A DNA stretch of 63,935 nucleotides from a virus (lineage: Duplodnaviria > Caudoviricetes): positions 1-63,935 of IMG/VR virus record IMGVR_UViG_3300036793_000016. One strand, 5' to 3'. Shown here one piece after another: positions 2 to 9,785 of this stretch (positions are counted from its first letter, which is position 1; every line of letters begins with the position of its first letter). The notes under the pieces were generated by a model. The model saw nothing but the letters and a program-made list of their open reading frames with translations, was not told the DNA's origin and ran no database searches. The position numbers and the translations under genes are program-made.

Positions 2-556
2 GACATCGAGCAGCTCTCGACGCAGTACCCGAGCCTCAAGACCCTCGCCGCGCCGCCTGGAAAGGCTCAGCAGCGGTCATGGGTGGCTGCCTTCACCACT
101 CGGCCCGAGGCGCTGGAGACGATGCTCAGCGACCTGATCAAGCAGGCGTACGCCAAGCCGGGTCGAATCGGCCAGCGACCCATGCCTAAGGAGGAGGAGG
201 TCAACCTCCACGCCCTCCTGCATGGCGAGTACACCGACGAGTCGTTGGTCGACGTGCTGACCAAGCTGGTGCCGCCCGGTCGACACAAGCAGTTCTGCGA
301 GCGCATCTTCATGAGCCGCCGCATGTACCAGCGGATGTTCTTGCCGGATCGGCACGCCGACAAGTACCACCCGGACATGAGCGACATCGAGCGGATCGCC
401 TCGGCGCTCAAGAAGCCCGCGAGCTTCTTCCTGGAGTACCGGCTCATGGCTGCCCAGGCCGCATTCGTGCGGCTGATCACCGATAAGCCCGTCATAGCCA
501 CTCGTCTGTACCGGGACTACCTGGAAGTGAGCAAGCAGAGCCCCTTCCTGCGGTAG
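2..556 (+). CDS. 5'-truncated putative HTH (XRE-like) DNA-binding protein
   Basis: Frame is open from base 2 (DIEQLSTQYPSLK...) into ORF 83..556; segment PDMSDIERIASALKKPASFFLEYR resembles the C-terminal half of an XRE HTH. Confidence 0.55.
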   Translation, partial: DIEQLSTQYPSLKTLAAPPGKAQQRSWVAAFTTRPEALETMLSDLIKQAYAKPGRIGQRPMPKEEEVNLHALLHGEYTDESLVDVLTKLVPPGRHKQFCERIFMSRRMYQRMFLPDRHADKYHPDMSDIERIASALKKPASFFLEYRLMAAQAAFVRLITDKPVIATRLYRDYLEVSKQSPFLR

Positions 557-605
557 CTGAACACTCGGTGTGGGCATACACGGCTATGACGAGAGGAGGA
601 AACAG

Positions 606-761
606 ATGTTCATCCTTGGAGTCGTGCTGCTGATTCTCGGATTCTTGTTCGGGATCGGCCTGCTGTGGACGCTCGGCATCATCCTGATCGTGCTCGGGGC
701 CGTGCTGTACCTGCTCGGCGCTGCGGGCCACGCGATCGGCGGGCGCAACCACTACTGGTAA
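606..761 (+). CDS. Small two-TM membrane protein (DUF6131-like, actinobacterial)
   Basis: GAGGAGGA RBS then ATG 606; MFILGVVLLILGFLFGIGLLWTLGIILIVLGAVLYLLGAAGHAIGGRNHYW. Confidence 0.75.
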   Translation: MFILGVVLLILGFLFGIGLLWTLGIILIVLGAVLYLLGAAGHAIGGRNHYW

Positions 762-779
762 CTGGACCTGGAAACGCGA

Positions 780-822
780 AACGCCGGGCCGTGGAGAGCG
801 AATCATCCACGAGCCCGGCGTT
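780..822 (+). terminator. Long hairpin, probable terminator
   Basis: AACGCCGGGC/GCCCGGCGTT plus inner GTGGA/TCCAC, just after the stop codon. Confidence 0.55.
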
Positions 823-896
823 CTGCATCACCCGATGTCCCAACCACGGAACACTGACCTGCAACCGCACCCGAACAGCCGAACGCTAGCAAACCC

Positions 897-925
897 TTGA
901 CCTCTACGCAATGTCCACTTACGGT
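897..925 (+). promoter_or_regulatory. SigA/HrdB-type promoter of the RNA operon
   Basis: TTGACC(897-902)-N17-TACGGT(920-925); predicted +1 near G933 coincides with the start of a 16-bp stem. Confidence 0.7.
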
Positions 926-932
926 CGCTGGC

Positions 933-1027
933 GGCGACCGGGCATGGACGGGCATGGAAGAACCCTTGGTCCACGGCCTGTAGTGGGTCGACTTGGGAAA
1001 GTCAGTGGACATCCATGCTCGGTCGTC
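933..1027 (+). ncRNA. Candidate structured ncRNA, domain 1
   Basis: 16-bp stem 933-948/1012-1027 enclosing stem 969-974/1005-1010 with two hairpins (one GGGA tetraloop). Confidence 0.6.
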
Positions 1028-1040
1028 TTAGCCTGATCTA

Positions 1041-1149
1041 GCTCGGAAACGAGCAGCCAGGTGGGAGAGTGGGCCACTGGCGGTGACTGGAGAACAGTCG
1101 CGCCCGTCACGCGGGGCGACGAAGGTCCGGGAGACCGCGATCCCCTGGT
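1041..1149 (+). ncRNA. Candidate structured ncRNA, domain 2
   Basis: GCTCG-GAAA-CGAGC hairpin; closing stem 1056-1066/1141-1149 around three further hairpins; ends 3 nt before tRNA-fMet. Confidence 0.5.
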
Positions 1150-1152
1150 CAA

Positions 1153-1226
1153 CGCGCAGTGGAGCAGCTCGGTAGCTCGGGGGACTCATAATCCTCAGGT
1201 CGTGGGTTCAAATCCCACCTGCGCAA
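1153..1226 (+). tRNA. tRNA-fMet (CAT), initiator type
   Basis: Cloverleaf; loop CTCATAA; C1xA72 mismatch, A11-U24; T-loop TTCAAAT; no encoded CCA. Confidence 0.92.
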
Positions 1227-1347
1227 CGAGTAGGAGGCGGGTAGAGACCCGCTGGCCAAACTCCGCGAGGCCCCTTATACGGCCATCGACTCCAATCGGT
1301 GGAACAACCAGTCGGGGGGTTTTTGTCTGGTGCAGGGCGATTGATGG

Positions 1348-1418
1348 TGGTCGGTAGTTCAACGGCAGGACGGCGCCTTCTGAGGGCGTAGGTGCGGGTT
1401 CGATTCCCGCTCGACAAA
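1348..1418 (+). tRNA. Atypical tRNA, anticodon CTG (Gln)
   Basis: D-stem GTTC/GGAC, anticodon stem GCGCC/GGCGT with loop TTCTGAG, T-arm GCGGG-TTCGATT-CCCGC; acceptor stem has G2xA71 mismatch. Confidence 0.7.
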
Positions 1419-1440
1419 TGCCATCAACCCTGTGCTGCAA

Positions 1441-1513
1441 TGGCTTGTAGCTCAGTCGGCAGAGCGGCGGATTGTTAATCCGCAAGTCCCTGGTTCGAGT
1501 CCAGGCGGGCCAG
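1441..1513 (+). tRNA. tRNA-Asn (GTT)
   Basis: Canonical cloverleaf, loop TTGTTAA, U1-A72, G73. Confidence 0.95.
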
Positions 1514-1515
1514 CA

Positions 1516-1614
1516 CCGTGGGTGATGGGTTCAGTTCATGGCTGATCGCCTAGTTGTCCAGCGCACGGCTTCGGCACGGCGTCCTGGAACGGAGTTTCAA
1601 TAGCTCGCCCACGG
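1516..1614 (+). ncRNA. Candidate cloverleaf-like ncRNA between tRNA-Asn and tRNA-Ala
   Basis: 10-bp closing stem CCGTGGGTGA/TCGCCCACGG with three internal hairpins, one capped by cUUCGg. Confidence 0.5.
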
Positions 1615-1618
1615 GTAA

Positions 1619-1691
1619 GGGGACGTAGCTCATCAGGTAGAGCGCCGCTTTTGCAAGGCGGATGTGGCAGGTTCGAGTCCTGTCGTCTCCA
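1619..1691 (+). tRNA. tRNA-Ala (TGC)
   Basis: Cloverleaf, loop TTTGCAA, G3.U70 alanine identity pair, A73. Confidence 0.95.
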
Positions 1692-1699
1692 CGCAGCAT

Positions 1700-1771
1700 T
1701 GGGAGCTGGGGTAATCGGCAGCCCGCGAGGTTCTGGCCCTCGTCGTCCAGGTTCGAGTCCTGGGTTCCCAG
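1700..1771 (+). tRNA. tRNA-Gln (CTG)
   Basis: Cloverleaf, loop TTCTGGC, U1-A72, G2-C71, G3-C70, G73. Confidence 0.93.
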
Positions 1772-1797
1772 CCTCTCATTCAACCCGAGCTTGACCG

Positions 1798-1826
1798 TTG
1801 CCTCGGCGTCCCCACCGGGCTATGTT
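1798..1826 (+). promoter_or_regulatory. Possible SigA-type promoter for the vWA gene
   Basis: TTGCCT-N17-TATGTT. Confidence 0.4.
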
Positions 1827-1864
1827 CGGATTTCCTCCAACCACGGAATAGGAATGGGACAGCT

Positions 1865-2533
1865 ATGACCAGTCAGCAGACGGAACCATCGGTCAACGAC
1901 CTCAGCCCGATGTTTAAGACGGGCGTCGAAAAGGAGCCGATCTTCCTGATCGACACCAGCGGCTCGATGAGCTGGCCCAACACCGAGGGCGGCGCAGCGC
2001 GCTACGTGATCCTGGGTGAGGCGATCGGCAACCTCGTCGGCGCGCTCGAAGGTCTCGACAGCCAGGCCGCGCACGAGAAGGAAGCAGGCGAGGACGCTGG
2101 CGGCGTCATGACCGTGCTGTTCTCGGACAAGACTGAGGTGCTCGGCGACCTCAGCTCGGCGAACGTGAAGCAGAAGTGGGACTCGATCGCCTGGGGCGGC
2201 GGCACCATCATCCAGCCCGGCTGGGACGCCGTGATCGAGAACTACATGGAGGAGTTCGGCGACACCCCGAAGCAGGACCGTCCGCACCTGCTCGCGGTCA
2301 TCTTCACCGACGGCGAGGCCAACGACACCGACGCCTTCGCCTCGACGATCGCCAAGTCGCAGGGTGGCACCTACGCGCTCATCGTGATCATGGGCTACGG
2401 GCCCGAGCACGACCGGGCGCTCCAGGTCTACCAGGACATCACCAAGCAGAACGATCACGTCCGCGTGGTCACGTTCGGCAACGAGACCGACCCGAAGGTG
2501 ATTGCAGACGGCCTGCTGTCAATGGTCGGCTAG
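1865..2533 (+). CDS. von Willebrand factor A (vWA) domain protein
   Basis: MIDAS motif FLIDTSGSM, GGT, VIFTDGEAN. Confidence 0.85.
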   Translation: MTSQQTEPSVNDLSPMFKTGVEKEPIFLIDTSGSMSWPNTEGGAARYVILGEAIGNLVGALEGLDSQAAHEKEAGEDAGGVMTVLFSDKTEVLGDLSSANVKQKWDSIAWGGGTIIQPGWDAVIENYMEEFGDTPKQDRPHLLAVIFTDGEANDTDAFASTIAKSQGGTYALIVIMGYGPEHDRALQVYQDITKQNDHVRVVTFGNETDPKVIADGLLSMVG

Positions 2534-2549
2534 GTAGCAATCCCGCCCC

Positions 2550-2584
2550 GGTGCCCCGCTTCATCCAGACTGGAGCGGGGCACC
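2550..2584 (+). terminator. Hairpin terminator
   Basis: GGTGCCCCGCTTCA/TGGAGCGGGGCACC after the vWA stop. Confidence 0.65.
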
Positions 2585-2603
2585 GCATGTCTGGGGAACC
2601 ATC

Positions 2604-3011
2604 GTGATCGCAGAGATTGTGGACGGCCTGCTCGGTGCCGGTGTCGGTGCCGTAGTGGGTCGTCTATCCAGGCGCAAGACGCCATCCGTGCCAACTGATC
2701 CGCCGCCCATCTGCGGCTGCGGTGACAACTACGCCCTGCACGATCCGACCACGCGGATGTGCTTCGGCACCAGGCGGCAGAGCGTCTACAACAAGCCGAC
2801 CGCGAGCTACTACGACGAGACGGTGCAGTGCCCGTGCCGCCAGTACGTGGGGCCGATCCCAGTCGACAGCTTCACCTCAATGCCGGTCTCATGGGGCACC
2901 CCGGTGGACACATCGAAACAGACGCCCGTCCAAAAGCCAGTTCAGCGTCCAGCACCGACCGTCTCGAAGCGCAAGACGCAGAAGGGCGACCCCGACTACG
3001 GTCCACCCTGA
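2604..3011 (+). CDS. Membrane-anchored Cys/His-rich hypothetical protein
   Basis: N-terminal hydrophobic helix; CGCGDNYALHD...C...CPCRQYVGP. Confidence 0.65.
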   Translation: MIAEIVDGLLGAGVGAVVGRLSRRKTPSVPTDPPPICGCGDNYALHDPTTRMCFGTRRQSVYNKPTASYYDETVQCPCRQYVGPIPVDSFTSMPVSWGTPVDTSKQTPVQKPVQRPAPTVSKRKTQKGDPDYGPP

Positions 3012-3084
3012 GCAATCTGAACATCCGTCCTCTGTTCATCCTGAGGCTCTGGATTCGTTCATATTCGTCAGCGACTCTCGCAGT

Positions 3085-3456
3085 GTGTCTGAGGGGCGTC
3101 ATCGTCGCGTAGCCGGTCAACATCGGCGCGATGTCGGGCAGCATCGCTACGTGGCACCCAAGCTGCCATCAGTCGCACCGCACCCCAGCCATGTGCCCCG
3201 GCGCGCATTGTTCACTCTTGCTGGGATCGCTGGACTCGCAGCGGCCAGTACCGTGTCGCCGGGATCGGCAGGGGCGTCGACCCACGAGGTTGAGCGTCGT
3301 TTCAAACACTGGCATGACCACCCAGATCGACATCCACCGAAACCCGTCGCGCCACTCGCCATTCCAGCCGACCTACCTGCCGACGCCACAATGAAGCAGA
3401 TCGTCGCCGCCCTCAATAGTCTGTCGGCCTACCTCCGGAGCGAGGGCGCGTCGTAA
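3085..3456 (+). CDS. Hypothetical protein with twin-arginine-like signal (start uncertain)
   Basis: 3' part of ORF 2722..3456; in-frame GTG at 3085; PRRALFTLAGIAGLAAAS...AGA. Confidence 0.45.
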   Translation: MSEGRHRRVAGQHRRDVGQHRYVAPKLPSVAPHPSHVPRRALFTLAGIAGLAAASTVSPGSAGASTHEVERRFKHWHDHPDRHPPKPVAPLAIPADLPADATMKQIVAALNSLSAYLRSEGAS

Positions 3457-3510
3457 AACCGACGAACATCCATTCCCTCTCTCGCGTCGTCCAGGCGATA
3501 TGGTTTCAAC

Positions 3511-4128
3511 ATGGGTCTGTTGAACGATCTCGGGCTGAAATACGACGCCGATAAGAGTTCCCGCTTCCACAACTACCTCGACTTCTACGAGCAGCACCTG
3601 CCCGACCGAAACTTCGCGGGCAGGCTCCTGGAGATCGGGATCATGGATGGCGTCAGCATGAAGATGTGGGCCGAGTTCTACCCGAAGGCCGAGATCGTCG
3701 GCATCGACGTGGTGGACAAGGAGCATCTCTACAACGACGACTGGCAGCTACCCAGGAGCATCAAACTGCTCACGCTCGATGGCACCAAGGCCGAGGACGT
3801 GCGACCGCTCGGCATGTTCGACATCATCATCGACGACGGCTCGCACTTCACCGCCGACCAGCAGGCCAGCTTCGAGCTGCTCTACTACGACCAGCTCAAC
3901 GAGGGCGGCATCTACATCGTCGAGGACATCTGGACCAGCCGTATGACGCAGTACGTCAACTCGGAGCTGGACATGTTCGATTGGTTGGAGAAGAAGGGCA
4001 TCACAGCGACCGTCTTCAAGCACGAGCACAACGGCATCGGCAGCATCGTGTTCCCGGAGTACCCCGAGTACAAAGACCTCGGCAGCGAGACGGCGCTGAT
4101 CCGAGCTGGCCAGAAAGGGATGGCATGA
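3511..4128 (+). CDS. Class I SAM-dependent methyltransferase (sugar O-methyltransferase-like)
   Basis: DK..FHNYLDFY, LLEIGI, IVGID, FDIIIDDGSH, GGIYIVED. Confidence 0.85.
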   Translation: MGLLNDLGLKYDADKSSRFHNYLDFYEQHLPDRNFAGRLLEIGIMDGVSMKMWAEFYPKAEIVGIDVVDKEHLYNDDWQLPRSIKLLTLDGTKAEDVRPLGMFDIIIDDGSHFTADQQASFELLYYDQLNEGGIYIVEDIWTSRMTQYVNSELDMFDWLEKKGITATVFKHEHNGIGSIVFPEYPEYKDLGSETALIRAGQKGMA

Positions 4129-4775
4129 CGATCTTTGTGGCGAATCAGAGCAAGCGCGTGTCGGACGCCGACGTGCGTGCCATGACTGCGGCCTGCGACA
4201 GTCAGGTCTTCTATCACGCAGCCCCGCTGTACGGGTACAAGCCGCGTCGCGTGCAGTTCACTGCCGATCCGAAGTCGATCACGAGCGACGCGCTGATCAT
4301 CGTGGCCGACACTCCGGACGAAGCCAACGCCCTCGGTTGGCACTCGGAGCAGGCCAGTGGCCAGTCCTACGGCTTCGTTTTCGCTGCGCCCGTACTCGAC
4401 AACGGCGGCGACGCGCTCTACAACACCAACGTCTCGGTCTCCTCGGTGCTCAGTCACGAGGTGCTGGAGACTTGCCTGAATCCAGGTGTGAACGTCAGCG
4501 CCGACGATGGGCAAGGCTGGCTCTGGGCTTACGAGGTGTGTGATCCGGTCGAGGGTGACAGCTACCCGATCTACTCCAAGATCATGGTCAGCAACTTCGT
4601 CCTTCCGGCGTTCTTCGACCAGGCAGGCAAGGGTCGCGTCGACTTCATGGGCACCGCGCCGGGGCCGTTCAGGCTCGCTCGGCATGGATATGCCGCTCGT
4701 CAGGCGAGCACCGGGAAGCAGGCGGAAATCTTCGGCGACCAGTACATCCCTTGGTACAACGGGGCCAAGGGCTAA
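4125..4775 (+). CDS. Hypothetical protein, possible zincin-like metallopeptidase
   Basis: ATGA overlap with upstream stop; ALGWH, VLSHEVLE, YEVCDPVE motifs. Confidence 0.6.
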   Translation: MTIFVANQSKRVSDADVRAMTAACDSQVFYHAAPLYGYKPRRVQFTADPKSITSDALIIVADTPDEANALGWHSEQASGQSYGFVFAAPVLDNGGDALYNTNVSVSSVLSHEVLETCLNPGVNVSADDGQGWLWAYEVCDPVEGDSYPIYSKIMVSNFVLPAFFDQAGKGRVDFMGTAPGPFRLARHGYAARQASTGKQAEIFGDQYIPWYNGAKG

Positions 4776-4804
4776 TCGGTTGACTCCTCACCTATGGTGA
4801 ACAC

Positions 4805-4843
4805 ATGACCTTCCGCTCCTGGCGACCGCGACCTCTCATCTGA
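4805..4843 (+). CDS. Putative leaderless leader peptide MTFRSWRPRPLI
   Basis: TATGGT(4793-4798)-N6-ATG; stop overlaps hairpin 4842-4869; directly upstream of tRNA-Trp and tRNA-Pro. Confidence 0.45.
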   Translation: MTFRSWRPRPLI

Positions 4844-4873
4844 GTGCAGTCGCTCGCGGCGCTGCGCTCGTAA

Positions 4874-4946
4874 TGGGGCGTAGCCAAGCGGCCAAGGCAG
4901 CGGCTTCCAAACCCGTCATTCGTCGGTTCGAGTCCGACCGCCCCAG
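4874..4946 (+). tRNA. tRNA-Trp (CCA) with a Gln-like body
   Basis: Cloverleaf, loop TTCCAAA, C31xC39 mismatch, U1-A72, G73. Confidence 0.85.
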
Positions 4947-4967
4947 CAGAATCGCGCGCAGTGCCAC

Positions 4968-5041
4968 CGGGATGTGGCGCAACTTGGTAGCGCAGCGGCT
5001 TTGGGAGCCGATGGCTGGGGGTTCAAATCCCTCCATCCCGA
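4968..5041 (+). tRNA. tRNA-Pro (TGG)
   Basis: Cloverleaf CGGGATG/CATCCCG, loop TTTGGGA, A73. Confidence 0.93.
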
Positions 5042-5104
5042 CACGATGATGAACTCATAGGGACGTGCGTTCCTATTCACCGATGCAAGGGCTATGGTGA
5101 CTCT

Positions 5105-5671
5105 GTGGCCGACCCGATCACGCGGGGCGAGTACGAATCCCTCTTGCTCACCCCAGGCGAGAAGTACATCCTGACCCAACTACGCAAGGAGATTCGATCG
5201 CTCATGTCCGCACTCACTGACCAGGTAGATGCAGCACTCGCGCTGCTCGCCACCGAGACCAGTGGCCTCCAGGGTGTCATCGACGCGCAGAACGCTGCCG
5301 CCGCTGTCCTCCAGGCAGCCCTCACCGCATCGCAGGCCAACGAGGTCGCCGACGAGGCCGAACTCCAGAAGGCTCTCGACGCTCTGAACCAGGCCAACGC
5401 CGCGCTGGCCGGTCTCCAGTCGAGCACCCCGACCACGCCGGTGGACCCGACGACTCCAGTCGACCCCACCACGCCGACCACTCCGGTCGACCCCACGACT
5501 CCCGTGGACCCGACGACCCCGACCGATCCGACCACTCCGGACCCGACCACTCCGGACCCGACCACCCCGGTCGACCCGACCACGCCGGACTTCCCGGCAA
5601 CCCCGGACCCAACGACTCCGGACCCGACCACGCCGGACCCGACCACTCCGGACGCGCCGACCGTCGTCTAG
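5105..5671 (+). CDS. Coiled-coil protein with C-terminal Pro/Thr/Asp repeats
   Basis: Ala/Leu/Gln-rich heptads then [11 protein letters not shown] repeats; alternative ATG at 5204. Confidence 0.75.
5429..5652 (+). repeat. Coding tandem repeats (15-18 bp units)
   Basis: Repeated CCGACCACTCCGGAC / CCGACCACGCCGGTGGAC units. Confidence 0.85.
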
Positions 5672-5685
5672 TCCTCGCGGCTGCA

Positions 5686-5715
5686 CAGCCCTCGTACCTT
5701 CGGGTGCGGGGGCTG
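5686..5715 (+). terminator. UUCG hairpin terminator
   Basis: CAGCCCTCGTACC-TTCG-GGTGCGGGGGCTG. Confidence 0.7.
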
Positions 5716-5752
5716 CTTGCATTTATATGGACGCGCGTCCGAACATAGAGGT

Positions 5753-7444
5753 ATGGCCGTCCTTGAAGCGTTGAGCGATGAAGAGAAGTACCTCGTCGCC
5801 ATCCTCCAGGACAGCTCAGGTGTCGACATCGCGGAGTTCCTCTGGCGCGACCCGGACCAGAAGGACAACCTGTTCCGCTGCTACGACTTCCAGATTCCCT
5901 GGTATCGCAACGACGCCAAGCAGCAGATCGACCAGTGCGCTCGCGCCATCGGAAAATCGGTGGGCATCCAAATGCGCGCCTTCGCCTTCCCGTTCTGCAA
6001 CCCCGGCAACGACATGCTCATCACGGCGCCAGAGATGATCCACCTCGACCCGGTGACCAAGAACATCGAGGACCGGCTCATGAGCACCCGTCTCTCCAGG
6101 GAGATGCTCAAGTCGGGCAACCAGTCGACCGGCATCACGCACCGCCCGTTCGAGGCGAAGTTCCGCAACGACGCCAAGATCATTGGCCGCATCCCGCAGA
6201 AGGACGGCAAGGGCGTCAAGGGTATGCACCCTCGGATGCTGGAGATGGACGAGGCGCAGGACTACCCCGCCGCTGGCTGGGTGGAACTGGTCGAGACCCT
6301 GCGCTTCGGCGACGAGACCTCACGTTGGCGGGCCCACGGCGTCTCCCGAGGCGTGCGCGACCACTACTACAAGCTCAGCCAGTCTGACGACTGGTACGTG
6401 CACCGCATCACCGCCATGCACCGGCCCGACTGGACCGACCAGGAGCGTAAGAGCAAGGCCGAGCTGTACGGCTCCAAGGAGCACCCGGACTACCGGCGCA
6501 ACATCCTGGGCCTGCACGGCGACGCGATGTCGAGCCTGTTCGTGCTGCACCGCCTCATGGCCTGCGTCGACTCGAACGAGAACTCGCCCTACAACACCCA
6601 GACCTACCAGCACATCCGCATCAACGACGAGTGGCTGCGCGACTCCGGGATGCCCATCGAGGCGCTTATCGACCTCCCAGGCGCCCACAAGTCGTTCAAG
6701 CGCGTCTGGATTGGGATGGACGTCGGTATGACCAACCACCCGTCCGAGATTCTGGTCTTCGGTGCCGAGAACAAGCCGGGCAAGAAGATCGGCGAGAAGG
6801 ACTCGGGCGAGCGGCTGCGGTGCCTGACCCGCATCCACCTGGAGCGCATCTCGGCGATGGACCAGCTCGCGGTCATGAACTTCCTGGCCGAGTTCTACGA
6901 GCCGCTGGCCTTCGGCATGGACCGCACCGGCCTGGGCCTGCCGATCTTCCAGACCGCGCAGTCGGGCGAGGGCAGCAACCACTGGCTCCAGAAGTCGATC
7001 CGTGGCTACAACTTCTCGGAGAAGATCACCGTCGGCTTCGAGCCTGCTCCCGAGGACGAGATGGAGTGGGTGGCGCCCGAGGACCGGGCCATCATGGGCA
7101 ACGTCCTGGAGTACAGCTCGGACCAGCTCCGGCTCCTCGTCGACCAGGGCGGGCTCGTGCTGCCGTGGGACATCGACATGCTCCGCGAGTTCCAGGGCCA
7201 GGCGTACTACATCAGCAAGTCAGCGACGAACCCGTATGGCAAGAAGGAGTTCAACAAGGGCAAGTTCCACGCTCTTGACGCCGCTCGGATGGCTGGCCTC
7301 GCCTACAGCCAGGAAGCGGTGGAGAAGATGCTCAAGCTCATGCCCGATCAGAGCAGCGTCATGCTCGCCTGGGCAGCCGAGGACGACTATGCCGGTGCCG
7401 TCAGTGGCGGCGGGTACGCCGACCCTATGTTCAGCGACTGGTGA
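5753..7444 (+). CDS. terL: Terminase large subunit
   Basis: Walker A-like CARAIGKS, Walker B LEMDEAQD, nuclease motifs IGMDVG, MDRTGLG, HALDAARM; first gene of the virion module; GAGG RBS before ATG 5753. Confidence 0.88.
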   Translation: MAVLEALSDEEKYLVAILQDSSGVDIAEFLWRDPDQKDNLFRCYDFQIPWYRNDAKQQIDQCARAIGKSVGIQMRAFAFPFCNPGNDMLITAPEMIHLDPVTKNIEDRLMSTRLSREMLKSGNQSTGITHRPFEAKFRNDAKIIGRIPQKDGKGVKGMHPRMLEMDEAQDYPAAGWVELVETLRFGDETSRWRAHGVSRGVRDHYYKLSQSDDWYVHRITAMHRPDWTDQERKSKAELYGSKEHPDYRRNILGLHGDAMSSLFVLHRLMACVDSNENSPYNTQTYQHIRINDEWLRDSGMPIEALIDLPGAHKSFKRVWIGMDVGMTNHPSEILVFGAENKPGKKIGEKDSGERLRCLTRIHLERISAMDQLAVMNFLAEFYEPLAFGMDRTGLGLPIFQTAQSGEGSNHWLQKSIRGYNFSEKITVGFEPAPEDEMEWVAPEDRAIMGNVLEYSSDQLRLLVDQGGLVLPWDIDMLREFQGQAYYISKSATNPYGKKEFNKGKFHALDAARMAGLAYSQEAVEKMLKLMPDQSSVMLAWAAEDDYAGAVSGGGYADPMFSDW

Positions 7445-7947: not shown

Positions 7948-9785
7948 GATACCTAGCTGGTCCCGAACCTCGCCAGATGGTCGAGCTGGCCGCGCGTCCT
8001 TCCCAGGGAGTGCTACCGCTCGATTTCGACTGGGGCGAGACCCAGGCGCCGGGAAACGCGACCTACTCCTATGTCGACGAGAGCGGCCTGCCCCAAGAAG
8101 TGGCCCAGACGGTGTGGAACCGTGGTGTCACTTTGGACGGGCGTCCGATTCGAGATGAGCTGGCCTCGTCGATGTCCCAGTGGATGTCCGGGCTCAACTC
8201 GCCGAGCATCGCCGGTGGCTCGCTGTTCTTCCGCAACCGCTTCACGCTGAGCACCAACGTCTACGACCAGATGATGCAGTGCATCGACGCTGTGGAGTGG
8301 GACGACGTGCTCGGCGCGGTCGGCGACGCCACCGAGGGCCTGGCCTTTCAGAAGGTCAGCTTCGAGCAGGTTGACCAGGACCAAGAGGACATCTGGAACC
8401 AGCTCGGCAAGAAGCTCAAGCTCCAGAAGGTCATGCAGACCGCGTGGCGCGAGCTATACAAGGTGAGCCAGGTCTACATCGGCGTGGACTGGGAACAGCA
8501 GAACATCAAGGTCCGCACGCCCACCATCCCGCTGACCAACGCCGACGACGATCCGCCTCAAGGTGACCAGCCGATCCCCGGCGCCGAAGACCTGCACCCG
8601 GACGGCACTCCGCGCCCAGGACCAAAGAAGCGCCAGCGTCGAAAGACCTTCGCCATCACGGCTCCGGCAGCTCTGACGGTCTGGGACCCAACCAAGATTC
8701 TCCCGGTCGGCCAGCTCATGTTCGGCAAGGAGCGGTTCGCCTACATCGCCAGCCAGCCTGAGCACGACGCCTTCATGAGCGTCTTCGAGGGCAAGGGTCA
8801 CGACCCGCTGGTGCTCAAGATGTTCGACGGCCCGTACCAGCCGACGCCGATGGAGATGGAAGTCCTGTCCGAGCACCACAAGGGGCCGCAGAACAAGGCG
8901 TGGCTCTGGCTGTTCAAGCGGGACGCGATCTTCCGCCACACGCTGACCAAAGCCGATTACGAGCGTTTCGCTGCACTGCGGCTCAAGTCAGCGTTGCCCG
9001 ACCTGGACATGAAGGCCCATCTGCGGGCGTCTGACCGAGCGGCGTTGATCGGCGCGACGAACTTCATCATCGTCCTCAAGCGGGGCTCGGATAAGTTCCC
9101 CGCGCGACCGGGTGAAGTCGAGCAGCTCCGAGACCAGAGTCGCGTCGTCGCGCGGATGCCGATCCTCGTTGGTGACCATCGTCTGAGTGTCGAGATCGTG
9201 ACGCCCCAGACTCAGTTCGTCCTGGATGAGAAGCGGTACAACCTCATCAACCAGACGCTGATCATGCGCGGGCTGTCGACGTTCAAGCTCGGCGCCTCGG
9301 GTCGCAGTGCTGGTGGCGCCCAGGGCCAGGCCAGCCAGGACGAGGAGATCGCTCGCGGCATCGAGGCCCGCCGCAACGAGTTGGCCGACACCATCTGGCG
9401 AAAGCTCGTCGAGGCCACGGTGCACAAGAACGAAGGCGTGCTCACCGAGACCCCGCAGATCAGCTTCCACCCCAAGCGTGTGGTCATCAACCTCGACGCC
9501 GATGTCATGAAGCTGGTTCTCCAGCTCCGCGACCGGGGCGACATCAGCCGGGAGACCGAGCTGGAGGAGTTCCAGATGGACCAGTCGGTGGAGTACGTCC
9601 GTCGCAAGCGCGAGAAGGGCATCGACGACGTGTTCAAGTCGAGCGTCCCGTTCAGCTCGCCGGACAGCAATCCGTTTCAAGCAGGCAACGCCGGAGGCCG
9701 ACCACTAGGTGGTGGGGGCTCGGGCTCGGACTCCACGCCTGCCGGTGGATCGACGGCGCCAACCAAGCCCGCTACGCCCAACTAG
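7944..9785 (+). CDS. Portal protein
   Basis: 613 aa, position after terminase, helical content, ISRET motif and low-complexity C-tail typical of portals. Confidence 0.7.
   Translation: MRYLAGPEPRQMVELAARPSQGVLPLDFDWGETQAPGNATYSYVDESGLPQEVAQTVWNRGVTLDGRPIRDELASSMSQWMSGLNSPSIAGGSLFFRNRFTLSTNVYDQMMQCIDAVEWDDVLGAVGDATEGLAFQKVSFEQVDQDQEDIWNQLGKKLKLQKVMQTAWRELYKVSQVYIGVDWEQQNIKVRTPTIPLTNADDDPPQGDQPIPGAEDLHPDGTPRPGPKKRQRRKTFAITAPAALTVWDPTKILPVGQLMFGKERFAYIASQPEHDAFMSVFEGKGHDPLVLKMFDGPYQPTPMEMEVLSEHHKGPQNKAWLWLFKRDAIFRHTLTKADYERFAALRLKSALPDLDMKAHLRASDRAALIGATNFIIVLKRGSDKFPARPGEVEQLRDQSRVVARMPILVGDHRLSVEIVTPQTQFVLDEKRYNLINQTLIMRGLSTFKLGASGRSAGGAQGQASQDEEIARGIEARRNELADTIWRKLVEATVHKNEGVLTETPQISFHPKRVVINLDADVMKLVLQLRDRGDISRETELEEFQMDQSVEYVRRKREKGIDDVFKSSVPFSSPDSNPFQAGNAGGRPLGGGGSGSDSTPAGGSTAPTKPATPN

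Follow-up and report, generated by a model that had tools for sequence, protein, structure and literature searches.

Phage tRNA clusters have long been known to hold RNAs other than tRNAs. The nearest precedent for the locus described here is the tRNA region of T4, which yields two small RNAs of unknown role, RNAC and RNAD, that are still unexplained (PMC3014915). In E. coli, a tRNA external transcribed spacer (ETS) sponges up small RNAs (sRNAs), as the relevant section of a citing paper relates (Lalaouna et al. 2015, cited in PMC9514646). Phage tRNAs themselves are presented as counter-measures to tRNA-targeting defences in the passages of PMC10264068 on that subject, and GOLLD and ROOL are structured RNAs whose function is given as unknown in the corresponding portions of two reports (10.1101/2024.12.08.627333; PMC5737381). 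Here, we analyse IMG/VR virus record IMGVR_UViG_3300036793_000016, whose whole stretch of 63,935 bp is called the window below, and within it the region 897-1771, where tRNAs alternate with long spacers and all features discussed lie on the + strand. A preliminary description had portrayed this region as one operon that interleaves tRNAs with several structured RNAs. Our analysis points instead to one candidate RNA element, a structured leader preceding an initiator-like tRNA-Met that, together with a trailer behind the tRNA, recurs in a second phage lineage. The element is real but thinly supported, a lead rather than a discovery.

The locus resembles that of RNAC and RNAD, as far as the source describes them, in having non-tRNA RNAs in or next to a phage tRNA cluster. 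T4, however, is an AT-rich coliphage, whereas the present case is a high-GC soil phage in which a single initiator-like tRNA has a 5' leader joined to it and is predicted to have a promoter and a terminator of its own. No family of the RNAC/RNAD type was among the Rfam results for the window, and the likeness is thus one of description, not of sequence or structure. The E. coli ETS, in the account given by its source, is a stable and functional by-product of tRNA precursor processing, which lends support to the view that leaders and trailers may do more than fill space. It is described there as a short 3' spacer pairing with Hfq-dependent sRNAs, in contrast to the ~95-nt 5' three-way junction found here, for which release is predicted and no pairing target was found.

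We consider the chances about even that the leader and the trailer together form a scaffold, kept by selection, in the precursor of an initiator-like phage tRNA, with the remaining spacers being junction sequence that contains local processing helices. The leader (1056-1149) is ~95 nt long, folds as a three-way junction and ends 3 nt ahead of tRNA-Met. It consists of a closing helix P1 with a small hairpin P1a, a helix P2 (GCGGU/ACCGC), a helix P3 and a helix P4 capped by an invariant UCACG loop; the internal loop between helices P2 and P3 places GA opposite GAG or AAG. The invariant blocks are GGGAGAGUGGGC, GCGGUGACU and AGACCGC (runs of 12, 9 and 7 nt), plus a 5-nt run. When the leaders of the window and of its relative L003 were folded separately by minimum free energy (MFE), the same P1/P1a/P2/P3/P4 architecture was obtained, with a helix P1 of ~8 bp that is quite different in sequence in the two phages. 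In a MAFFT alignment, both sequences pair at 15/15 core positions of helices P2, P3 and upper P4, four of them through double-sided changes, compared with 23-50% in a control in which the partners were slid by 1-3 columns. RNAalifold, run without a supplied structure, returned the same leader helices with 25 pairs, 7 of them compensatory. Identity over the leader core amounts to 51/80 ungapped columns (64%); it is concentrated in the invariant runs, and the differences fall in helices. The fold is also strand-specific: the tRNA-bounded spacer 1041-1152 has a z-score of -3.07 on the + strand and -1.52 on the - strand. A coding role for the leader was ruled out, as no shared peptide was found and the 29 mismatches of the leader core fall 13/9/7 by codon position, with no 3-periodicity. 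Selection at the RNA level, which had been proposed for every spacer, is thus borne out for the leader 5' of tRNA-Met by its strand-specific fold, shared architecture and compensatory changes, but not for every spacer.

Just upstream, a stem-loop GCUCG-GAAA-CGAGC (1041-1054) lies at the predicted 5' end of the transcript and may protect it; this stem-loop is absent from L003. Within the leader, CAGGUGGGA (1058-1066) is perfectly complementary over 9 nt to UCCCACCUG of tRNA-Met (1213-1221; T and acceptor strands), and the MFE fold of the full precursor uses this pairing in place of the cloverleaf. L003 has only ~5 complementary bases, so the pairing is probably due to chance and was set aside.

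Behind the tRNA, the trailer (1228-1263) consists of an outer helix GAGU/ACUC around the hairpin GGCGGGU-AGAG-ACCCGCU, and its counterpart in L003 is GAGGC/GCCUC around GGCAGCU-AGAGA-GGCUGCU. In both phages, the start of the outer helix lies 2 nt past the discriminator base, and the hairpin inside it has 7 bp and an AGAG(A) loop. The blocks ACGAG, UAGAGA and CUCCGCGAG are invariant, and three pairs, as read from the two folds, show double-sided changes. The trailer is followed by a terminator-like element, CCCC ... GGGGGG UUUUU GUCU (1264-1330, with G6 U5 at 1313-1325), that is homologous to the L003 terminator, a clean hairpin followed by UUUUGUCUU with a z-score of -3.54. Termination at window 1264-1330 is predicted; a simple terminator pattern scan made no call there.

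A promoter-like site, P2, precedes the unit at 1006-1034 (TGGACA, 17 nt, TAGCCT), with a predicted start at ~1041. The aligned positions 8965-8993 of L003 read TGGACA, 17 nt, TAATGT, and both phages therefore have TGGACA-17-TANNNT ahead of the leader. A further site, P1, at 897-925 (TTGACC, 17 nt, TACGGT) fits a loose pattern, and its predicted start at ~932-934 coincides with the 5' end of a hairpin at 933-1027. When both strands of the whole window are taken together, T[TG]GACN-16..18-TANNNT matches at only three places; P1 and P2 are two of these and may act as promoters. The sequence behind the clean SigA-type promoter reported earlier, TTGACC-17-TACGGT, is present at 897-925, although a stricter consensus scan called none. 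The single operon does not hold up: a terminator-like element follows the tRNA-Met trailer, and a second promoter-like site lies at 1006-1034.

The tRNA between the leader and the trailer, tRNA-Met (CAT; 1153-1227; 60.6 bits with the Rfam tRNA model RF00005), has no encoded CCA. Its acceptor stem (CGCGCAG/CUGCGCA) begins with a C1xA72 mismatch, replaced by G1.U72 in L003, and both phages have A11:U24, with the D stem GAGC/GCUC. In the anticodon stem, G29:C41 and G30:C40 are followed by A31:U39 in place of a third G:C pair, and A31:U39 is found in L003 as well. C1xA72, A11:U24 and three G:C pairs at 29-31:39-41 are what we take to be the hallmarks of the bacterial initiator tRNA (tRNA-fMet). 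The window tRNA-Met is classed on its sequence as initiator-like rather than as fMet, because A31:U39 breaks the hallmark of three G:C pairs. In a more distant relative, L022, tRNA-Met has all three G:C pairs and is a canonical initiator, which lies at another genomic place and lacks the leader. In this 147.7-kb relative, the surroundings of the initiator tRNA (L022 20050-20460) consist on both sides of dense short repeats of the type GGCAGGG, CTTGGCA and CTAGGC, and in this they differ from the leader of the window. A31:U39 lies at the base of the anticodon stem, adjoining the place where VapC-type toxins cut initiator tRNA, and the A31:U39 form (window 1153-1226; L003 9104-9177) could be a defence-evasion variant.

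The leader was the only spacer for which matches were found, in L002 and L003 together with duplicate records (E 0.024). L002 and L003 are two records that are identical in the tRNA-Met region and belong to one other lineage, in which window 1006-1330 recurs; the flanks of their unit align with window 1020-1345. In loci collected through the large terminase (TerL), blastn (word size 7) and nhmmer gave no match for 925-1040, 1228-1347 or 1515-1618. A blastn search of 850-1850 against 50,697 phage records matched 357 records; among the 40 matches listed, none covers 80% of the query and all fall on tRNA-Met, tRNA-Asn or tRNA-Gln2. A covariance model of the leader recovered only the window, L002 and L003 from 95 sources (1.12 Mb), with the next best score at 18.6 bits (E 0.16), and found nothing further in five whole virus records. 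Pattern scans of IMG/VR viral contigs gave similar results. The leader 5' motif occurs in 59 stretches, two of which belong to the L002/L003 records; the remaining 57 show no continuation into the leader or a tRNA in the 110 nt shown, and most of them share one coding-like context. The leader 3' pattern gave 8 stretches, two of them L002/L003, and the other 6 have no tRNA and no model score above 13.6 bits. The trailer pattern gave only 2 stretches, again L002/L003, and a 19-mer of the 5' flank arm of tRNA-Gln1 had 0 matches in viral contigs. For the leader, one other lineage supplies a homologue with compensatory changes, whereas the 164 related loci (1.66 Mb, duplicates included) yielded no homologue of 933-1027 or of 1515-1618.

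Folding against background also set the spacers apart. With the coordinates of the preliminary description, z-scores against 200 dinucleotide shuffles were -4.97 for 933-1027 (-5.23 on the - strand), -3.64 for 1041-1149 (-1.22), -1.18 for 1237-1325, -1.95 for 1329-1435 and -2.15 for 1516-1614. These coordinates had been picked to close helices, and the spacers were therefore refolded as bounded by the tRNAs. The z-scores on the + and - strands then became -4.04 and -4.06 for 926-1040, -0.37 and -0.68 for 1228-1347, and -2.15 and -1.33 for 1515-1618. Among 176 background windows, each 110 nt long and taken from elsewhere in the record (mean z -0.29, standard deviation 1.05), -2.15 or lower was reached by 5/176, -3.07 or lower by 2/176 and -4.0 or lower by 0/176. 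Two of the long spacers (926-1040 and 1041-1152) are clear outliers, 1515-1618 is marginal and 1228-1347 is ordinary. The claim that every long spacer folds into a multi-helix unit is therefore confirmed only in part. The stronger claim that each spacer is a self-contained functional RNA is not supported, as 1228-1347 is trailer plus terminator with an ordinary fold and 1515-1618 is marginal. The GNRA and UUCG loops that had been pointed out are present in the folds, namely the GAAA loop of 1041-1054 and a cUUCGg loop in 1516-1614. The spacer between tRNA-Asn and tRNA-Ala (1515-1618) contains this cUUCGg loop, a closing stem of 9-10 bp (1516-1525/1605-1614) and an inverted repeat.

The strongest fold of all is the long branched hairpin at 933-1027, which has an inner junction and a 16-bp closing stem that includes two G.U pairs. 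Its fold is as good on the - strand as on the + strand, and a search of the 164 related loci yielded no homologue of it. CGGGCATGGA occurs in it twice in tandem (939-958) and once as an inverted copy (1012-1021), and the -35 element of P2 sits inside its arm. A similar sequence, CGGGATGGAC, overlaps the -35 element of the L003 promoter (L003 8960-8969), and the window holds 10 copies of GGCATGGA, where 2.8 would be expected. The CGGGCATGGA/CGGGATGGAC/GGCATGGA repeats may be a regulator-binding site. In addition, a 19-nt direct repeat with 79% identity (GGTCGCTGGCGGCGACCGG / GGCCACTGGCGGTGACTGG; window 923-941 and 1072-1090) ties the start of the hairpin to the conserved leader block GCGGTGAC.

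The five tRNAs of the region (within 1153-1773) were confirmed by ARAGORN and the Rfam tRNA model, with RF00005 scores of 49.1-66.1 bits; 5/5 exceed the gathering score of 29 bits, each with the ARAGORN anticodon. Besides tRNA-Met, these are tRNA-Gln1 (CTG; 1348-1418), which scores lower at 49.1 bits and has a G2.A71 mismatch, tRNA-Asn (GTT; 1441-1514; 66.1 bits), tRNA-Ala (TGC; 1619-1692; 63.9 bits) and tRNA-Gln2 (CTG; 1700-1773; 49.7 bits), the sequence of which is unrelated to that of tRNA-Gln1. The acceptor stem of tRNA-Gln1 is extended by a helix of 8 + 9 bp with a 3-nt bulge, formed by a 5' arm at 1330-1347 and its partner, a 3' arm at 1419-1435. This duplex (-22.2 kcal/mol, z -3.35) was reached by 2/1000 shuffles, and the structured flanks reported for 1329-1435 are therefore non-random in their pairing. 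The flanks of tRNA-Trp (4854-4873 and 4947-4966) are likewise complementary (duplex -24.5 kcal/mol, reached by 2/1000 shuffles), and flank helices thus surround 2/7 tRNAs of the record. Helices between the leader and trailer of rRNA and tRNA precursors, as in rRNA operons and in the processing of T4 tRNA-Gln, are cut by RNase III. The flank helices of tRNA-Gln1 and tRNA-Trp look like leader-trailer processing stems and resemble such precursors in that 5' and 3' flanks pair around the mature RNA, but they are 17-18 bp long with a bulge, and their cleavage is only predicted.

Described RNA families and coding sequences do not account for the spacers. With Rfam 15 (4227 models, including GOLLD, ROOL and YrlA), only tRNA reached its gathering score in the whole window, and nine related loci gave tRNAs only. 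At E<=10, the best non-tRNA result in 700-1900 was YrlA, together with antisense-tRNA artefacts. Y RNA-like (YrlA) RNAs, which the preliminary description mentions, combine a tRNA-like module with a long terminal stem, whereas in the present case a complete tRNA has its acceptor stem lengthened by the long stem. The match to YrlA (1387-1472) scores 20 bits against a gathering score of 69 and covers tRNA-Gln1 from its T arm onward and tRNA-Asn as far as its D arm. A YrlA/Ro (Rsr) system was ruled out, as the score lies far under gathering, the match is plain tRNA likeness and the partial record has no TROVE gene: the Ro/TROVE family PF05731 gave 0 matches in the 63.9-kb record, which is estimated to be 43% complete, and positive controls were found. 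GOLLD and ROOL are found near tRNAs in phages and prophages and are far larger than ~95-110 nt, the size of the elements here; neither matched at gathering or at E<=10. The spacers are not degenerate tRNAs or tRNA-like remnants either, since they yielded no + strand cloverleaf and no extra RF00005 match at E<=10, and the -ps and -ps80 settings of ARAGORN added only two complement-strand calls that overlap other features. Open reading frames (ORFs) of at least 30 aa in 897-1771 are short or cross tRNAs. Five of them were compared with Pfam, where 0/5 matched at E<=0.1, and with PHROGs, where 1/5 had a 15-bit match (E 0.03), and the absence of a convincing ORF is thereby upheld.

The tRNA-Met unit sits between two genes that are adjacent in most relatives. 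The record, with a G+C content of ~60-66%, covers an estimated 43% of its genome, and complete relatives are 144-148 kb long; the phage is an uncultured, high-GC soil phage with a genome of ~145-150 kb. A gene for a 184-aa protein with no family match (window 2-556) is conserved among relatives, and TerL (window 5717-7444) has a PHROG match. The 184-aa gene abuts TerL in most relatives compared (e.g. L004, L005, L008-L013), but the distance is 5.1 kb in the window and 1.6 kb in L002/L003, and gaps of 0.45-1.6 kb are seen in L006, L016, L021, L024, L045, L120 and L002/L003. Judging from gene order, this junction (window 556-5717) is an insertion hotspot. The window and L002/L003 have one cassette in common, in which the gene of a small membrane protein (DUF6131 in the window) is accompanied by the tRNA-Met unit and by a coiled-coil-like gene. 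Behind the tRNA-Met terminator, the window has another 3.8 kb with four tRNAs, a gene with a von Willebrand factor A (vWA) domain, a methyltransferase, unknown genes, and tRNA-Trp and tRNA-Pro (4874-5042, 3' of the five-tRNA cluster). Because this segment lies behind the terminator at a hotspot, the apparent operon reads as a stack of insertions, and the non-conserved spacers are what insertion joints would leave.

L002 and L003 have a single tRNA-Met, ~0.9 kb upstream of the terminase, and a TerL that is 81% identical to that of the window. The TerL searches gave 56 viral loci and 49 metagenome loci, largely the same contigs, none of them closer than 81%. In the comparison of TerL with cultured phages, the nearest match had 40% identity and was an uncultured mangrove-soil record, and the neighbouring vWA gene as a query gave no related viral locus. 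The gene directly before the terminase (window 5105-5671) encodes a protein that begins with a coiled-coil-like part and continues as a long repeat rich in Pro and Thr (TPVDPTTP...), and G+C content rises to 0.73 there. In L003, a 57-aa CxxC...CxxC zinc-ribbon ORF (8761-8934, - strand) is divergent from the tRNA-Met unit; it has no counterpart in window 762-1040, where the hairpin 933-1027 occupies its place. In L024, the terminase match is in two pieces, 2121-2705 and 3594-4835, with a gap of ~0.9 kb that suggests an intein, intron or inserted gene.

On the scaffold reading, accessory insertions that lie between the 184-aa gene and TerL make the region a mosaic rather than one operon. Its conserved core would be a self-contained tRNA-Met transcription unit, made up of P2 (1006-1034), the 5' stem-loop, the leader, the tRNA, the trailer hairpin and a terminator at ~1330. 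With the leader and the trailer, the transcript would have ends that are structured and protected, and the tRNA would sit between two compact domains. A cut by RNase P 3 nt past the leader would free a structured by-product RNA of ~110 nt, and the trailer hairpin and terminator may hold off 3' exonucleases until the tRNA is trimmed and receives CCA. The four tRNAs further downstream would have been added behind the tRNA-Met terminator, leaving their spacers as junction sequence, and the helices flanking tRNA-Gln1 and tRNA-Trp would be leader-trailer processing stems. The tRNAs, the fold statistics, the conserved architecture with its compensatory changes, the synteny and the lack of Rfam matches are observations; the transcription starts, the termination, the liberation of the leader by RNase P and any function that it then has are predictions.

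Several points weigh against this scaffold reading. The core-pairing value observed for the leader was reached by 30/500 shuffles, and the structure had been derived from the same sequences. There are two distinct leader sequences in all, L002 being equal to L003 here, and statistical support is limited. P1a is not conserved in register, and helix P1 could not be placed in common alignment columns. The leader identity of 64% is barely above the best neutral proxy, the four-fold sites of TerL (61%; 41% for the 184-aa gene and 54% for the gene after the unit). The window terminator keeps the CCCC...GGGGGGUUUUUGUCU frame, but its stem is branched by an inserted inner branch, with a z-score of -0.41. 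Over the whole window, matches to the loose promoter pattern are no more frequent than expected (3 found, 3.7 expected), and the stricter TTGACA/TATAAT scan found 0 promoters in 500-2200. The hairpin 933-1027, the strongest fold, is given no specific role. Finally, the invariant unpaired blocks, the 12-mer and the UCACG loop, exceed the needs of a merely stabilising leader and suit a trans-acting or protein-binding RNA better.

Such an RNA is the substance of the main alternative, which we consider unlikely and in which the leader (1056-1149), perhaps also the hairpin 933-1027, would be a trans-acting small RNA and the tRNA mainly an RNase P handle setting its 3' end. The released RNA could plausibly bind a host or phage protein, or base-pair through its invariant single-stranded blocks, with translation-initiation or defence factors as plausible partners in view of its association with an initiator-like tRNA. 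The invariant unpaired GGGAGAGUGGGC, the UCACG loop and the GA//RAG internal loop beside covarying helices would fit such a role, as would a compact three-way junction that abuts the RNase P site, and the T4 tRNA-region RNAs (PMC3014915) and the ETS sponge (PMC9514646) offer precedents as far as these sources describe them. Yet no partner gene is apparent, as the record has no TROVE/Ro gene and the neighbours are the vWA protein, the methyltransferase and unknowns. The window shows no excess of complements to the invariant 12-mer (6 at <=2 mismatches, one of which is the motif itself, against 12.9 expected), and the element occurs in only two phage lineages among the 95 sources searched with the model. 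A bolder form, which we judge unlikely, would make the leader (~95-110 nt) a new class of phage small RNA, produced by means of an initiator-like tRNA as a built-in RNase P handle. It might bind a host factor, such as a translation-initiation component or a tRNA-targeting defence nuclease, through GGGAGAGUGGGC, UCACG and GA//RAG, and the variant initiator tRNA (A31:U39) and its companion RNA would be delivered as one module.

In our view, a DNA-level role for the conserved blocks and the inverted repeats is very unlikely; they would then be operator or regulator sites around the two promoters, or packaging-related sites beside the terminase genes, with the RNA folds being incidental. The hairpin 933-1027 does fold equally on both strands, CGGGCATGGA is present in tandem and inverted with the similar CGGGATGGAC over the L003 -35 element, and the -35 element of P2 lies inside the hairpin arm, in a region between the 184-aa gene and the terminase. 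The leader, on the other hand, has a strand-specific fold, and its helices change on both sides yet keep their pairs, which is not required of DNA-binding sites; a DNA-level role is possible chiefly for 933-1027. Highly improbable is the original proposal that 933-1027, 1041-1149, 1237-1325, the 1329-1435 flanks and 1516-1614 are separate non-coding RNAs excised by tRNA processing, serving as decoys for anticodon nucleases or RNA-binding defence proteins. Two spacers fold far beyond background and a third marginally so, the flank helix of tRNA-Gln1 is non-random, and phage tRNAs do counter tRNA-targeting defences according to the pertinent part of PMC10264068. However, the ordinary fold of 1228-1347 is explained by trailer and terminator, 933-1027 and 1515-1618 lack homologues in related loci, and the spacers hold no tRNA-like remnant and therefore no mimicry of a nuclease substrate. 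Moreover, the terminator splits the supposed operon, and the closest relative keeps the tRNA-Met unit only.

In summary, the locus provides a compact example, in a high-GC soil phage, of a leader and a trailer that co-vary with an initiator-like tRNA and have their own predicted promoter and terminator. It also carries the lesson that nice folds in high-GC spacers are weak evidence alone. Should the leader not be functional, the case still shows tRNA cassettes piling up at a hotspot beside the terminase. If the leader does prove stable and functional, it would be a new RNA motif and would tie a companion RNA to the way in which phages control translation initiation.

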